DNA from: Phyllosticta citribraziliensis
Taxonomy: Eukaryota
DNA length: 64,000 nt
NCBI RefSeq assembly: GCF_038025025.1
Contig: NW_027117348.1
Coordinates: 1 to 64,000, forward strand
Reading direction: 5' to 3'
The translations under genes and the position numbers were made by a program. Below the pieces are notes generated by a model that was given only the letters and a program-made list of their open reading frames with translations, searched no databases and was not told the DNA's origin. Of the stretch, positions 8,562 to 64,000 are shown piece after piece; within the stretch, counting starts at the first letter, position 1, and each line of letters opens with the position of its first letter.

Positions 8562-9617
8562 TCAACTCAGGTAGGGGTCAAAGTACTCCTGGATCAGAGT
8601 GCTGTTCTTTCCACCATGCTCATTCAGCACAAGCTGCAGCAAGATGCGCGCCTTTTGCGGGTTGAAGTTGCCAGAAGTCAAGGTGTCGTCCGCGGGTGCG
8701 ACGTAGCCCGAACCAGTGCGACTGGCCCTCACGACTGGAATTCCCTGCTCGGTGAAAGCCTGCGCAGCGTCTGCCCAAGCATCCGGGAGCGATGCGTCAC
8801 CCGCGCAAGCAATCACAACGCCCTCCGCGCCCGAAGAGACCGAGTAGTTGAGAAGACGGACGTCCATGTCGATGTTGCCATACAAGATGTCGACCCTGGG
8901 CAGGGCGTCAACGCCGGAGACGTCGAAGAACGGCTTCTTGTACACGCGCGAAGGCTCGAAGTAAAAGACTGGGACTTCATCATTGAAAACGCCCAGGTAT
9001 CCTTGCTCGGCCGCCTTGAAGGTATCCACGGCGCGCGTGTTTGTCTTGGTGGTGTACATGGCCGAGCCGATGCGGTCGTTGAGCACAATCATGACGCCCC
9101 GGTCCGCTGCCTCCTTCGAGCCGGCCAATGCGACAGCCTCGTAGATGTTGAAAGGCCCGTCAGCGCTGAGGGCGGTGGAGGGCCTCATGGCTGCGGCCAT
9201 TGCGATGGGCAAGCTCTCATTGTAGGTGAGGTCCAGAAACATGGCCGTCTCTTCGAGGGTGTCGGTGCCGTGGGTAATGACGATTCCGTCGGCACTTCCG
9301 TTAGCCGCCACATTTGTCGCCAGCTTGGTGAGCCTCAGGAGGAGGGAAGTGTTCATGTTCTGGCTGCCAATATTTGAGAACTGGATTCCAGAGACTGAAG
9401 AGATATTCGAGAGTGCCGGGACGGCCTCGATCAAGGCGTCCACTCCCAAAGATCCCGCCTTGTATCCCGTCGTCGACGTCGAATCCGAGTTGGTGCCTGC
9501 AATCGTTCCGCCGGTTGCAATGATGCTGACGCGAGGCAGAGAGCTGTTGGATGCTGCCGTCACGCCATTGGCGAAGACGGCCGTCGAAATGGCAACGAGG
9601 GAGCTGGAAAACCGCAT
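8562..9617 (-). CDS. Secreted L-asparaginase (type II)
   Basis: Signal peptide, ATGGTIAG and THGTDTLEE catalytic motifs, LNPQKAR-like FNPQKARILL; intronless, 351 aa. Confidence 0.97.
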   Translation of the reverse strand: MRFSSSLVAISTAVFANGVTAASNSSLPRVSIIATGGTIAGTNSDSTSTTGYKAGSLGVDALIEAVPALSNISSVSGIQFSNIGSQNMNTSLLLRLTKLATNVAANGSADGIVITHGTDTLEETAMFLDLTYNESLPIAMAAAMRPSTALSADGPFNIYEAVALAGSKEAADRGVMIVLNDRIGSAMYTTKTNTRAVDTFKAAEQGYLGVFNDEVPVFYFEPSRVYKKPFFDVSGVDALPRVDILYGNIDMDVRLLNYSVSSGAEGVVIACAGDASLPDAWADAAQAFTEQGIPVVRASRTGSGYVAPADDTLTSGNFNPQKARILLQLVLNEHGGKNSTLIQEYFDPYLS

Positions 9618-57453: not shown

Positions 57454-58758
57454 ATGAAGCCGAACCAAGCACTCTTGCTTGTCCTCGCCATCATGGGCAT
57501 CCTGGCGGTGGTGTCAACCTTCATGTGGAAGTGGCTCGCTAGGACCCGCATGAACCGGTATCGCGAACGCGTCGAGCTTCGCCGGGCAGCTCGCGCTGCG
57601 GCTCACGCTACCGCCCGCGTTGTCATGTCCGTTCCAGGCAGTAATCAGAAGGTCTGGGTCTTCTCGCGATATCATCTGGGTCGAAGTATCGAGCTGACGA
57701 TTCTGCAGTCTGCCTCCAACGCGACACACGCATCACCTCTCCGCGGACGCGTGCGCCGCCAGCACCGATCGGGCGAGCCGTCAAAAGCCAGCGCCGCAAA
57801 TGCTTCTACTGCCCCCTCCACTGCCCCAGTCGTCCCGGCTCCGCGTACACCCAGCCAGTCGCCTACCAAGCGTGGTCATCGAGCTTCTGGCTCGCCCAAG
57901 AAGAATGGAAACGGCGAAGGCGTAACAGTCGAGATCGGTCAGATGGAGGACTTCCTCCGGCCCGCCGGCCTGAAGTGGAACAAGGCAGCTCCAGCCAAGG
58001 CGTCGCCCACCAAGGTTTCGGCAACGAAGGAGTCTACAGTGAAAGAGGCTCCCGTCAAGGCTTCTACGGTCAAGGCCGCTGCGCCCAAGGAGCCTGCGGC
58101 AAAAGGGTCCACGCCAAAGGAGTCACCCGTGAAGACTTCTACCGTGAAGATCGCCCAGTCCAAGGTGTCTACGGTCAAAGAGTCTCCCGTCAAGACATCC
58201 ACCACGAAGGAATCGCCAACCAAGACGTCTACGACCAAGGAAGCTCCGATCAAGGCGTCGTCTCCCACCAAAGACTCTGCAAAGAAGCCTGCTCCGCTCA
58301 AGTTGTCTCCGAAAAAGGCGTCTACGACCACAAGCCAGACCAAGGCCTCTCCGACCAAGGCGTCCGCCACCAAGGACGCTCCCGCCAACGCGTCCCCCGC
58401 CAACACGTCTCCCATCAAGACGTCTCCAGTCAAATCTTCTGCGGCAAAGGAGCCTGCGGCCAAGGCTTCTCCCACCAAGGCTTCTCCAACCAAGGAATCG
58501 CCCGTCAAGTCCTGCATGGCAAAGCAGGCATCGGCCAACGCTTCTCCGACCAAAGCGTCTTCGTCCAAGCAGGCCCTCGTCAAGGCGACTCCGCCGCCCA
58601 AGTCGCCTGGAAAACAGGTCAGCTTTGCCGACAAGCACAAGGCAAGCCTTGCTCCCGCCAGTCCAACCAAGTCGAAGCAGTCCTCTGGTAGTGGTGGCTT
58701 GCTCAACTTTGGAGGCCTCGATATATTCGGCGGCGATGAGTATGTTCAGAAGCAGTAG
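57454..58758 (+). CDS. N-terminally membrane-anchored protein with long K/S/P/T-rich pentapeptide-type repeats
   Basis: Hydrophobic N-terminus then basic residues; probable in-frame intron ~57652-57708; many ASPTK/ESPVK units. Confidence 0.75.
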   Translation: MKPNQALLLVLAIMGILAVVSTFMWKWLARTRMNRYRERVELRRAARAAAHATARVVMSVPGSNQKVWVFSRYHLGRSIELTILQSASNATHASPLRGRVRRQHRSGEPSKASAANASTAPSTAPVVPAPRTPSQSPTKRGHRASGSPKKNGNGEGVTVEIGQMEDFLRPAGLKWNKAAPAKASPTKVSATKESTVKEAPVKASTVKAAAPKEPAAKGSTPKESPVKTSTVKIAQSKVSTVKESPVKTSTTKESPTKTSTTKEAPIKASSPTKDSAKKPAPLKLSPKKASTTTSQTKASPTKASATKDAPANASPANTSPIKTSPVKSSAAKEPAAKASPTKASPTKESPVKSCMAKQASANASPTKASSSKQALVKATPPPKSPGKQVSFADKHKASLAPASPTKSKQSSGSGGLLNFGGLDIFGGDEYVQKQ

Positions 58759-59709: not shown

Positions 59710-60861
59710 ATGCTTCTAAACAGTGAGTTCTGCCTCCGCCTGAAACCTCTGCCGCTTGCCGCTAACCACAGCCATCAGGAACGATGATTGCATGTGGAAC
59801 TGCTTGCTGCCTCGCTCTCGAGGCTCCCAACCGCCGAGCCGACAGTGCGGTATATAAGGACTGCGATCCTGAGTCTGTTGCCGAGAAGTCGAAAGCCGAA
59901 GAAGGTGAGTCTCCGCCGACATGCCGCCTTTGCCGTTTACTGACACAAACTGCCAGGAACCACGGCCAACCAGCATGAGGCTCGTGACGCTCTCTTTGGA
60001 ACCTGCGAGCTTGTCGGAAACATCGCGACTCAGCTGGTTCAGGTATCCGACTCGCCAGCCACACGCCTCCGAGACCTGAACAACCTCCGTCTCGCGAGCA
60101 CCCTCTGGAACCAAGCCATCACTGGAGAGCTTTCCGAGGCCAGGCAGCTCCTGTTCCAGCACCCAATCTCGACAACTGGCCTCCCGGTATACCCCAGGCC
60201 CGAGAGTGCTGAGATCCCGCTGCCCCGAGGCAACCTCCTTCTCGCAGAGAATTACCGCACGAATGCTGGCCTCGACCTGGCCATCAACGCCTGGGATGTG
60301 AAGTATAATCCGATCTTCAAGCACATCATCTTCCGTTTCCGCACCCAGCGACCAGGTCCCTACCCACACATCAATGACACGGTCAACATCAGGCTTGGAC
60401 GTGGAAGGGCTTCTCCCAGCGTCTGGATGGTGGTGACGAACCAGCCCGCGATCCCCAACATCGACGAGTCCGACCATTGGCACGTCGAGGTCAACATCAG
60501 GAACGCATCCCCGGGCAAGTTCGGTCGCGCAATTTGTGACCAATTCATCACCCAGCCTCCAGTCCAGAGCCTTCGTATTACCTTCCGCGCTGAGACTCCC
60601 ATCTTCGAGGGTTACGTGTGGTGCCCGGTGGTCACTGAGCCCACTGGTGTCAGGGTCTGGCACGTGCTCCAGGCCTTCCTCGACGCTCTGGTCCTCGAGG
60701 ATAACACGAACACAGAGCTGAGCGACCTCTACGCGCGTTCTTCGCCACAAGACCCCAAAGACGAGCCAAGCATTGACAATGGTCTCAGCCTCCCGCCTCT
60801 CCCCGATGACTCGGATGAGGACCTGAATGAGCCGACGGACGGCAACTCGGAGTCGTCCTAA
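59710..60861 (+). CDS. F-box-like protein
   Basis: After intron 59905-59956 the frame reads ARDALFGTCELVGNIATQL...RDLNNLRLASTLWNQAI...ARQLLFQHP and continues into ORF 60298-60861 (FITQPP motif); start uncertain (59710 or 59784). Confidence 0.65.
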
Positions 60862-60984: not shown

Positions 60985-61572
60985 ATGTACGTATATAGCA
61001 TCAATGCTAGGACCAAAAGCCTCTTCATCTCTCAGCCCCCGCTTCGCGATATCCTGTTTCGCTACCGGAGAAACCTGCCAGGTGCCTATCCCCGCGTGAA
61101 CGACATGATCAAGATCAAGCTGGGTGACAAGATGCTTTTTCCTCTCTTCTGGTTCTGGGTCGCGAACCAGTCCGCGCGCCACGACCTCGATAATCCTTAC
61201 GGCAAGACTATTGAAATAAATGTCAAGACCAACCGCCAGAACAAGTTCGGCCGCGTCATCTGCGACCAATTCATCTCTCAGCCTCCAATTTGCGAGATGA
61301 AGGTCACCTTCCTGTGTGAGAGCCCTCTTTTTGAGGGATACAGGTGGATCGTGAAGGTGGCCGAGCCCACTGGCGTGAGGGTTTGGCACATTCTCCAAGC
61401 CCTTCTCGACGCCTTCGACCCTGAAGGCGATCCCAGTGACCTCCGCGACCTGTACCAGCACAACGTCGGCGAAGTCAACATGGACAACGACTTGGGAAAC
61501 CTGCCGCCTCTTCCTGACGACTCTGATGAAGACCTCCACGAGCCTGCGGGCGACAGCTCGGAGTCGTGCTGA
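60985..61572 (+). CDS. Tandem paralogue of the C-terminal domain of the upstream gene, lacking the F-box-like region
   Basis: KFGRVICDQFISQPP, EPTGVRVWHILQALLDA and LPPLPDDSDEDLHEP nearly match the upstream copy; frame open. Confidence 0.7.
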   Translation: MYVYSINARTKSLFISQPPLRDILFRYRRNLPGAYPRVNDMIKIKLGDKMLFPLFWFWVANQSARHDLDNPYGKTIEINVKTNRQNKFGRVICDQFISQPPICEMKVTFLCESPLFEGYRWIVKVAEPTGVRVWHILQALLDAFDPEGDPSDLRDLYQHNVGEVNMDNDLGNLPPLPDDSDEDLHEPAGDSSESC

Positions 61573-62525
61573 TCATCTCGACGTTGCCAAAGGGGCTTGC
61601 CTCTTCCACATTCCTCATTTCGACGTTTGTAAGCAAGATACCCTCACCTTTCTTGCCCTCTTTGGCCTCGCAAAGTTCGACGAATATGGTGACGGCGGTG
61701 GAGATTGGGAGACGTCCGCGGTTGCTTTAGCCAGGTTTGCACTTTTTTCCCCTTGTCATGTACGTAAGTAGCATTGGACTTCCAACTCCGCATCTTGCCA
61801 CAGGATGTGCCGTCCTTGGAGTGGTTTTCTTCATCCTCAGGGCGTTTGCGGTAGACAAGACTACCAATGGATCAGTCTTCTCTCTTACTTGCTTAGTGAT
61901 TCAGGCATGCGTGCTCTGTGGCATAATGGGAAGAATGGTCACTCAAACCGCCAACAAGTGTCCGGCTTCGCGGCTGGAAACACTTCGACCATGCCAGCCA
62001 CCGCCCCTCCCCCGACTTGATACTGACTGGCATCAGCAGCGCCGAAACACTCCCCAGATTCTTTCGCCATGTCCTCCCCTGGGCCGAACTGATTGGACAC
62101 AGCGCAGCCTTGCCGGCCCTAACCTTCACCAAGCCCCGCATTGCGTTCTCAATGTGAAGATTGCTCAGTGAAAAGCGCCACGAAGGCACGCCATGACAAC
62201 TCCGAATCGCTGAAAGGCCAACGCGGAAGGCTTCGGGACGATAGACGCGTATGCGAGACTTTGAACGCGTTTCCCCTGGCAAAGCTGCGGCCACGTACTG
62301 CGTTGCAGCCGTTTTCTCGACAGCGAAGTTGCTGAATGTGGTGATCTGCTTTCAATCAACTTCGACCGCCAGGAACCGAGAACATGGGCAAAGAACAGCA
62401 TTTTTGGTCGCGACAAAACGAAGCCTTCGCGTGAAAGATGCTACAAAAGGCTGTCGTGTCGATACCTGAGGTACTCAAGACACTTGGATCCTCTTGGTCA
62501 TATTGAGACTCCCAGCAGCAACGAG

Positions 62526-62733
62526 CAACAAAGAAGCCATGAACAAACGGTCGTTTGTCTCGGCTTTCCCACCAGCATCAGCACAAACCTCGCGCCAGCG
62601 GAACAAAGAAGACGACATCTCAAAACGCACCCCAATAGCCAGAAGTCTCCTTTCACAATCTACTCGCCCGCCGGGAAATCATTTCTCGGCATTATTGACA
62701 CCTGCAGACCCTCAGCGTTGCTCACGCTATAAA
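62526..62733 (+). promoter_or_regulatory. Putative pheromone-gene promoter: two HMG-box sites (AACAAAGAA) and a TATA box
   Basis: CAACAAAGAA 62526-62535; GAACAAAGAA 62601-62610 (reverse complement TTCTTTGTTC, TR-box consensus); TATAAA 62728-62733. Confidence 0.65.
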
Positions 62734-62847
62734 GCCCACCGCGTCGTCGACAGCATACGCCTTTTCCTTTCCACCAGCACACGCACGCGCACACTCTCAC
62801 TATCCAAACCAACACCCACACTCGCTTCCAGCAACCAACAATTCAAA

Positions 62848-62907
62848 ATGGGCCGCAAGTGGAACCCCATGAAGAACGACAACACCAAGTACTGCACCGT
62901 CATGTAA
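62848..62907 (+). CDS. mfa1: a-factor-like lipopeptide mating pheromone precursor (MGRKWNPMKNDNTKYCTVM)
   Basis: 19 codons ending in CAAX (CTVM) with preceding Tyr; TTCAAAATG start context; C/A-rich leader; codon bias typical of highly expressed genes; TATA upstream. Confidence 0.85.
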   Translation: MGRKWNPMKNDNTKYCTVM

Positions 62908-64000
62908 AGCCGCCCTCGCGGGACGCACACGACGCACGCGGCGACTCCGACGCGGCCTAGCCATCGAATGCACACGACGGGGCCTAGGATGCGGACAAGT
63001 TCCGAGACGCAGGGACGGGCAGGAGGGGTGTCGTCCTGCGTTTTGAGGTCGCCTGCTTGGGAGATGAAGATTCGATGATTCGATAGGGGGAAGATGGGAA
63101 GGGGGCGCTGTGGGATAGGAGAGAAAATCAGAAAATGGAGCGGTGCGGCAGGTTGCTCAATCTGTTGGGCGGCCGTCGCACTTTCAAAACCCAACTGCTT
63201 TTGTGCCTTGTGCTGAGTGCTTCGCGAATGGACGGCGGCTTCAGGGCTGCTGTGGAGGATGCTGGGAATGGAGCGTACACGACTCCCTTTCCAAGACTCT
63301 TTAGCACTGGTGAAGACCACAGATGGTGGCTCCACAGTCACGGGCACAAAAAGTCGACTGCTGATGAGAATAGGTTGAGCACACTGGCCGATGCTACCGT
63401 ACCACGCCAAAGCCGCACTGCGCCAGCACCTGAAGCAAGACCGAGCCCTTTTGAACTCCAGGAGAAGAAAGAGCTGATAAGAATAGGTAAGGGGACAGAC
63501 CAAGCGCTCGTTATGCCGTTATCCCCTGCGGTGCTGTGCAGCTGAGGCAGTTTGCGGCGCATATCGCACACGGCGTTCCGTTGGAGCTACTCGGGCACAA
63601 CGAGGCGCATGAACAGATGAGACTTTGCCTGGAACTCGATGTCGAGGGGGTCTCAGGCATTGGTGTCTGACGGGGAAGTTTGTTGCAGCCGTGGGTTGGA
63701 CTAGAAATGCCACATATGGCCTCCTCAGAGCAACTTGAACTCGACGGGGTGCTCAAACTTGATGAGGCGCTTCGAAGCACGGCAGCCTGCGGAAGACTCA
63801 TCGTTGAGCGCGACGCGTGTAGTGACGTCTGGCTGGGGAGTCTGCTTAAGCTTTGCATTTGATGACCTGTAGAGTCGAGTGAACATGTCGATGATGAGCC
63901 GCTCGTCAAGAGCTCGTCCTCCAAGGGGTCTTGTAGATCGAGCAGTACGCGAGCCAACAATTTGAGCCTGGAAAAGGTACTTGGACGCTCCTCCCTTGGT

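Follow-up and report, generated by a model that had tools for sequence, protein, structure and literature searches.

Does a frame of 19 codons in the genome of a Phyllosticta species encode a farnesylated mating pheromone of the a-factor type? According to Wilson et al. (2023; PMC10569646), no filamentous ascomycete beyond the Sordariomycetes had ever yielded an a-factor gene, and the same source reports Ste2- and Ste3-type receptors as conserved across the Ascomycota. P. citricarpa and its sister species are described as heterothallic and fertilised by spermatia (PMC6859488). Heterothallism, spermatial fertilisation and the Ascomycota-wide conservation of the receptors together lead to the expectation of a lipopeptide pheromone in Phyllosticta. 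The word "pheromone" does not occur in a Phyllosticta mating-type preprint, in a review of P. citricarpa (PMC6859488) or in the P. citrichinaensis genome paper, and the open-access and bioRxiv full texts yielded neither a Dothideomycete a-factor nor a paper with the tail YCTVM, in a search that could miss a report in a subscription journal. An earlier, sequence-only reading of this DNA had implicitly assumed a typical a-factor-bearing ascomycete. The host is a Phyllosticta and hence a Dothideomycete, a member of a class without an a-factor gene found in print, which makes the pheromone claim a bolder one and not a routine one. On the sequence evidence set out below, we put the probability that the frame is an a-factor-type farnesylated mating pheromone precursor at roughly 60%.

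The candidate frame and its expression signals

In the window, that is, the whole 64-kb stretch of DNA analysed, the candidate is an unannotated frame of 19 codons on the plus strand at 62848–62907, with the translation MGRKWNPMKNDNTKYCTVM*. The sequence-only reading had singled it out as a hidden CaaX gene with a strong start context, a TATA box about 115 bp upstream and an unusually basic N-terminus, and each of these points was borne out when the sequence was re-read. The start codon lies in the context CAAAATGG (caaaATGg), with A at −3 and G at +4. The TATAAA box is located at 62728–62733 (+), 115–120 nt 5′ of the ATG, and is followed by a C/A-rich stretch (62734–62847, +) that would comprise a promoter-proximal part, a putative transcription start and the 5′ leader. 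From the TATA box to the start codon no upstream ATG is present, and these 120 nt consist of 50 C, 36 A, 21 T and 13 G. The precursor begins with the basic residues MGRKW, has a pI of 9.6 and carries no signal peptide, and with its 19 codons it belongs with the stand-alone very short frames of the about 20–45 aa class. Its CaaX box, C-T-V-M (62893–62904, +), is of the farnesyl type and stands directly before the stop, with Cys16 as the predicted farnesylation site. A terminal M in the CaaX box directs farnesylation and not geranylgeranylation. By analogy with the yeast a-factor pathway, removal of TVM and carboxyl-methylation of the cysteine are predicted to follow.

The candidate peptide is also the tail of a 122-aa ATG frame (62539–62907), which had been dismissed as spurious in the sequence-only reading. 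Our analysis agrees with that judgement: the longer frame matched no Pfam family and no relative in a collection of 5.8 billion proteins, and it is taken as spurious because a 1-nt insertion at 62722 in a related organism falls inside it. Nine flanking frames, including a 136-aa frame at 63135–63545, matched no Pfam family at E ≤ 1, and a 44-aa frame found no relatives in the protein collection. In addition, no Rfam match at E ≤ 1 was obtained across 62000–64000, and a search around the candidate for repeat or transposon arms found none. The 3′ flank (62908–63400, +) is non-coding and possibly includes a 3′ UTR; it aligns to relatives at 81–89% with indels of 1, 2 and 9 nt.

Upstream of the TATA box lie two perfect matches to (A/G)ACAAAGAA, the consensus bound by PaHMG5, the Ste11 homologue of Podospora anserina, whose deletion is reported to lower two pheromone transcripts to 0.0004 and 0.004 of the wild-type level (PMC3730723). 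Site 1, AACAAAGAA, occupies 62527–62535 (+), 321 nt before the ATG. Site 2, GAACAAAGAA, occupies 62601–62610 (+) and holds AACAAAGAA at 62602, 246 nt before the ATG; it is the exact complement of the TR-box TTCTTTGTTY, which is described as the Ste11 element of the S. pombe sexual regulon (PMC3713066). Both consensus matches are contained in identical 10-mers, AACAAAGAAG, which begin at 62527 and 62602 (+), 75 nt apart. The consensus occurs six times on both strands of the window (128 kb of strand), and two of the six occurrences are those upstream of the candidate. When the window was shuffled 500 times, two sites never fell within a fixed 400-nt stretch; of 2000 shuffles confined to the local 1 kb, 2 gave two sites. 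Both counts are post hoc, because the repeat had been noticed by eye before it was matched to the published consensus. By analogy with Podospora and S. pombe, the sites point to a sexual regulon. Among other mating-related elements, the Ste12-type PRE TGAAACA was found seven times in the window and nowhere in 61800–62900, and the Mcm1-type CC(A/T)6GG was absent from the 64-kb window.

How often such a frame should arise by chance was estimated by shuffling the 62 kb that exclude the AT-rich end 300 times with dinucleotides preserved and counting micro-ORFs of 12–45 codons. In the window itself, read in all six frames, C[VTI][VI]M-stop occurs once, in the candidate. Micro-ORFs with this ending had a mean of 0.0067 per shuffle, with at least one in 2 of 300 shuffles and none of the 300 giving a form with Y before the C. 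Generic CaaX micro-ORFs were discarded as evidence, four being observed against a mean of 3.1, a count reached in 117 of the 300 shuffles. Scaled to a genome of ∼30 Mb, the shuffles lead to an expectation of about three chance C[VTI][VI]M micro-ORFs, so the sequence alone is weak and undecisive evidence. Furthermore, many windows were scanned, so that somewhere a chance CaaX micro-ORF with good signals would have appeared; only conservation speaks against a chance find of this kind.

Searches of sequence collections yielded no relative that we accept. A HMMER search with a 30-aa piece against 1.84 billion representatives returned two matches, both treated as spurious: one (P0121) is a bacterial surface-repeat protein scored by 11 weak stretches, and the other (P0122) is a protein of 2652 aa matched by 13 stretches (E 2e-06). 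A metagenome scan with back-translated MKNDNTKYCT gave no match. With TKYCTVM-stop, four matches were obtained, about the chance estimate, and none of the four was accepted as a relative when its frame context was considered; one lies inside the span of a 486-aa same-strand frame, its own frame being open for 13 codons only, and another sits in a frame of 12 codons. The remaining two, in contigs of 34% GC, L001 (1501–1524, −) and L002 (1501–1524, +), lie at the end of the same 226-aa frame, ending in ...HENTKYCTVM-stop; its last eight residues are those of the candidate, and this agreement was treated as chance.

Conservation limited to the frame

Four sequencing runs (X1–X4), none of them recorded as RNA, aligned to 62400–63400 at a likeness of at least 80%. 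Two of them, X1 and X2, come from the same species at low depth and showed no differences over 62878–63033 and 62669–62862. The other two, X3 and X4, come from relatives, in which eight pieces of the flanks had 10.9–18.5% mismatches with gaps uncounted, rates that are underestimates because only pieces at least 80% alike were aligned. Over the 56 nt from 62843 to 62898, a 72-nt contig of X4 differs from the window at one position and a 564-nt contig of X3 at two, both being counts of differences and not codon positions. Before 62843 the same X3 contig has no likeness to the window at all. Another contig of X3 shows seven differences over 62770–62898, an identity of ∼95% that includes part of the leader. 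In X4 the leader stretch 62734–62847 did not align, and the TATA region (62726–62752) forms a short aligning island in a diverged copy (joints 62640>62726 and 62752>62844). Compared with the flank rates in a binomial test, the probability of at most one difference in 56 is 3e-3 (X4) and that of at most two is 6e-3 (X3), two tests that are not independent, given a possible relationship between X3 and X4.

The likeness sets in 5 nt 5′ of the ATG and ends with the stop. Contigs of both relatives end at 62898, which indicates that the copies part from each other directly behind the Thr codon. For the last two codons and the stop, the documentation thus comes from one X4 contig, which continues through the stop to 62908, 1 nt past it, and then diverges. 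Indels of 1, 2, 5 and 9 nt are scattered over the flanks in X3 and X4 (e.g., at 62467, 62722, 63083, 63090, 63099, 63154 and 63198), and those of 1, 2 and 5 nt (62467, 62722, 63083, 63090, 63099 and 63154) mean that both flanks are non-coding. Small indels in the relatives likewise break the 136-aa frame at 63135. Judged from these alignments, likeness limited to the frame is what a coding sequence under selection would show when the non-coding DNA on either side drifts, and it was found in two related organisms, with the last two codons covered by the single contig. The sequence-only reading had held that a lack of conservation in related genomes would count against its proposal, and the core of the frame proved to be kept in both X3 and X4. 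The same result leaves its description of the peptide as species-specific unsupported, since the core has one or two differences in 56 nt in relatives whose flanks are 11–19% different. We therefore regard a real, conserved and probably translated CaaX micro-gene as very likely, considerably more so than any particular function for it.

Some relatives may hold more than one copy. The X3 contigs lead into the candidate frame from two upstream contexts whose depths (5.4 and 6.8) are equal, which suggests two gene copies. In X4, the contig carrying the frame has a depth of 213.8, which matches that of three downstream classes taken together (216.5). These contig classes, at depths of ∼15, 69 and 130, have the frame in common and different flanks, and they could represent a mixed sample or strains, unequal nuclei, or paralogues. 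An interpretation of summed depth bins of 1011 and 408 in X4 as about 12 copies or internal repeats was abandoned, because contigs overlapping by 30 nt had been counted repeatedly.

Known lipopeptide pheromones and alternative explanations

For the a-factor genes of the Sordariomycetes, function has been demonstrated. The precursors of N. crassa (mfa-1), S. macrospora (ppg2), P. anserina (MFM) and G. zeae (ppg2) are 21–24 aa long, compared with 19 aa in the candidate (PMC10569646, file S2), and like it they are single short frames without a signal peptide that gene callers do not find. The Sordariales precursors, of 24 aa, end in ...GYCVVM and thus also have Tyr before the Cys, and the G. zeae precursor, of 21 aa, ends in ...LSCTVM, a CTVM tail identical to that of the candidate. 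In contrast, the Sordariomycete N-terminus begins with MPST and is Ser/Thr-rich, whereas that of the candidate is the basic MGRKW, and the candidate has neither the N-F-N-G-Y nor the G-Y motif of these a-factors. The hosts also differ, Sordariomycetes in the one case and a Dothideomycete in the other. Transcription of Podospora MFM depends on PaHMG5, although its site deviates from the consensus and is reported to bind weakly in vitro, whereas the candidate sites are perfect (PMC3730723). In a by-eye comparison with the list of file S2, in which single-unit forms are 21–47 aa long, the candidate shares a length of about 20 residues, the Y-C pair and CTVM; likeness beyond the CaaX box, in the form of the MPST start, the Ser/Thr-rich N-terminus and G-Y before the Cys, was absent. 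Homology to known a-factors is therefore not demonstrable. According to Wilson et al. (PMC10569646), the CaaX/CPAX box is the "only single strictly conserved character" of a-factors and is not exclusive to pheromones. Since the family is not defined by homology, the missing wider likeness lowers the claim without excluding it.

Other fungal lipopeptides offer further points of comparison. MFA1/MFA2 of S. cerevisiae and mfm1-3 of S. pombe encode short CaaX precursors that are farnesylated and carboxyl-methylated, are present in more than one gene copy and act on Ste3/Map3-type receptors. The S. pombe mfm genes are targets of Ste11. In the yeast a-factor, a long N-terminal extension is removed by Ste24 and Axl1. 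Yeast precursors have 33–38 aa (PMC10569646, file S2), while at most about seven residues could be removed from the candidate. In the yeast precursors K-D-N stands ahead of the mature part and W-D-P close to the Cys, and the candidate has K-N-D-N and W-N-P, motifs that by sequence are too small for homology. The unit KNDNTKYCTVM of the candidate resembles those of the multi-CaaX a-factors (Verticillium, Huntiella and hpp1 of Trichoderma reesei), which are 11–12 residues long, start with K/R and end in C-x-[VIL]-M, but these precursors contain two to five units per frame and the candidate one. Outside the Sordariomycetes, the closest parallel in kind is the "putative a-factor" family of the Leotiomycetes (B. 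cinerea BCIN_13g03330), CaaX micro-genes that were found without homology and are usually unannotated (PMC10569646). CTVM is given as the commonest tail of these candidates and is also that of the Phyllosticta candidate. As described there, they differ from the latter in having 45–64 aa, a Ser/Thr-rich N-terminus and often GY, compared with 19 aa, a basic N-terminus and a single Cys, and the authors call the role of their candidate unclear.

The main rival to the pheromone reading, which we consider unlikely, shares with it a conserved, prenylated micro-peptide and assigns this another role, for instance as a membrane-anchored regulatory micro-protein or a signalling lipopeptide not concerned with mating. 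Conservation and the CaaX evidence do not separate the two. The N-terminus of the candidate differs from those of all a-factors listed in file S2, and the Leotiomycete family of uncertain role occupies the same position, both of which favour the rival (PMC10569646). What speaks for a pheromone is that the two PaHMG5/Ste11 consensus sites indicate a sexual regulon, and that the size and the Y-C-T-V-M end agree with the a-factor set. Moreover, we know of no other class of CaaX peptides of ∼20 residues in fungi, which also counts against a micro-peptide of different function.

Two further explanations deny that the frame is a gene of its own. The 56-nt core could be a non-coding element (a cis-regulatory sequence, an RNA or a short dispersed repeat) within which a frame with a CaaX box is coincidental. 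X3 and X4 show it in more than a single setting, as would be the case for a dispersed repeat, the alignments supply counts of differences and not codon positions, and the roughly three chance micro-ORFs per 30-Mb genome also leave room for coincidence. Yet the limits of conservation coincide with those of the frame, setting in 5 nt ahead of the ATG and reaching 1 nt beyond the stop, a translated gene is suggested by the start context, the TATA box and a leader free of ATGs, and neither an Rfam match nor repeat arms were found; a chance overlap with the sole Y-C-T-V-M-stop in 64 kb is unlikely as well (0 of 300 shuffles). We regard such an element as quite improbable. Still less probable is that the frame belongs to a larger gene, either as the final exon of one that encodes a prenylated protein (G-gamma, Ras/Rho-type GTPase) or as an upstream ORF controlling a downstream coding sequence. 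The frame is indeed open upstream to 62539, an AG at 62830–62831 could act as a splice acceptor, and the 136-aa frame begins 228 nt downstream. Against a larger gene stand the nine flanking frames without a Pfam family (E ≤ 1), the 122-aa and 44-aa frames without protein relatives, the end of the likeness 5 nt before the ATG and the 1-nt insertion of X4 at 62722. A last exon of a larger CaaX protein was consequently rejected, there being no upstream domain and no in-frame conservation upstream, and an upstream ORF was rejected because indels of 1 and 2 nt fall in the downstream frame of the relatives.

Genomic setting, proposed pathway and meaning for Phyllosticta

The start of the window is a chromosome end, with (CCCTAA)n at positions 1 to ∼100 followed by ∼2 kb of DNA of ∼20% GC, and the candidate gene lies ∼63 kb from this telomere. 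Over 100–2050, TpA/ApT is 1.71, (CpA+TpG)/(ApC+GpT) is 0.02 and GC is 0.21, compared with 0.44–0.69 and 1.15–1.29 for the two indices in the rest of the window. The RIP-like signature at the telomere that the sequence-only reading had mentioned is thus present, and its indices are extreme. A RIP-mutated subtelomere is consistent with sexual reproduction in this lineage, at present or in the past.

Several other genes of the window were recorded in passing. An intronless type II L-asparaginase gene at 8562–9617 (−; coding 8562–9614) encodes a protein 97% identical to a Phyllosticta protein and 69–70% identical to those of two further Phyllosticta species; scattered fungi follow at 61–64%, and then mostly bacteria at ∼50–55%. 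The 97% identity is what assigns the window to Phyllosticta, and so to the Botryosphaeriales within the Dothideomycetes and not to the Sordariomycetes with their known a-factor genes. The patchy distribution among fungi might reflect an old transfer from bacteria. A 434-aa frame at 57454–58758 (+) has a hydrophobic N-terminus, after which come ∼300 residues of short repeats rich in K/S/T/P/A (SPTK/STVK-like), and no Pfam family; its product may be a low-complexity protein of the surface or the nucleus. Two tandem paralogous small genes at 60427–60861 and 60985–61572 (+) lie immediately upstream of the pheromone candidate and have weak DUF6699 matches (E 1.7e-4 and 6e-4, below the Pfam cut-off) and common DNA blocks that are 72–85% identical and spaced 711–726 nt apart.

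If the frame is a pheromone gene, we infer the following course from transcription to recognition. An HMG-box factor of the Ste11/PaHMG5 type, probably acting with the mating-type factors, would bind the two AACAAAGAA sites at −321 and −246 and drive transcription from the TATA box at −120, and the short, C/A-rich and ATG-free leader would deliver ribosomes to the ATG in its strong context. The 19-residue precursor would be farnesylated on Cys16 of CTVM, lose TVM and be carboxyl-methylated, and possible trimming after the basic MGRK would leave the 12-mer WNPMKNDNTKYC, equal in length to the yeast a-factor. Export would be carried out by a Ste6-type ABC transporter, and the Ste3-type receptor of the partner would sense the peptide during the recognition between spermatium and ascogonium. 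All published pathogenic strains are MAT1-2 (P. citrichinaensis genome paper), and in Sordariomycetes MAT1-2 is reported as the mating type that preferentially expresses the a-factor (PMC10569646).

The sequence-only reading had proposed an a-factor-type pheromone gene missed by gene callers. That proposal gains from the conservation limited to the frame, the two HMG consensus sites and the CTVM tail, and it loses the species specificity and the routine host that it had supposed. Taken furthest, the pheromone reading would make this the first a-factor-type gene of a Dothideomycete, with a minimal precursor of 19 residues, a basic N-terminus other than MPST, at least two copies in certain relatives within Phyllosticta and a connection through two perfect sites to a Ste11/PaHMG5-type factor, and to this combination we give about even odds.

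The Dothideomycetes are the largest fungal class and include many crop pathogens whose epidemics are started by sexual spores. A credible candidate here offers a direct test of an open question, a recipe by which other classes could be searched, and a marker of mating competence. If the pheromone reading is true, the "missing" lipopeptide pheromones of the non-Sordariomycete classes would not be absent but diverged beyond the reach of homology search, and they would be findable by combining Y/x-C-a-a-M micro-ORFs with conservation limited to the frame and HMG5 sites.
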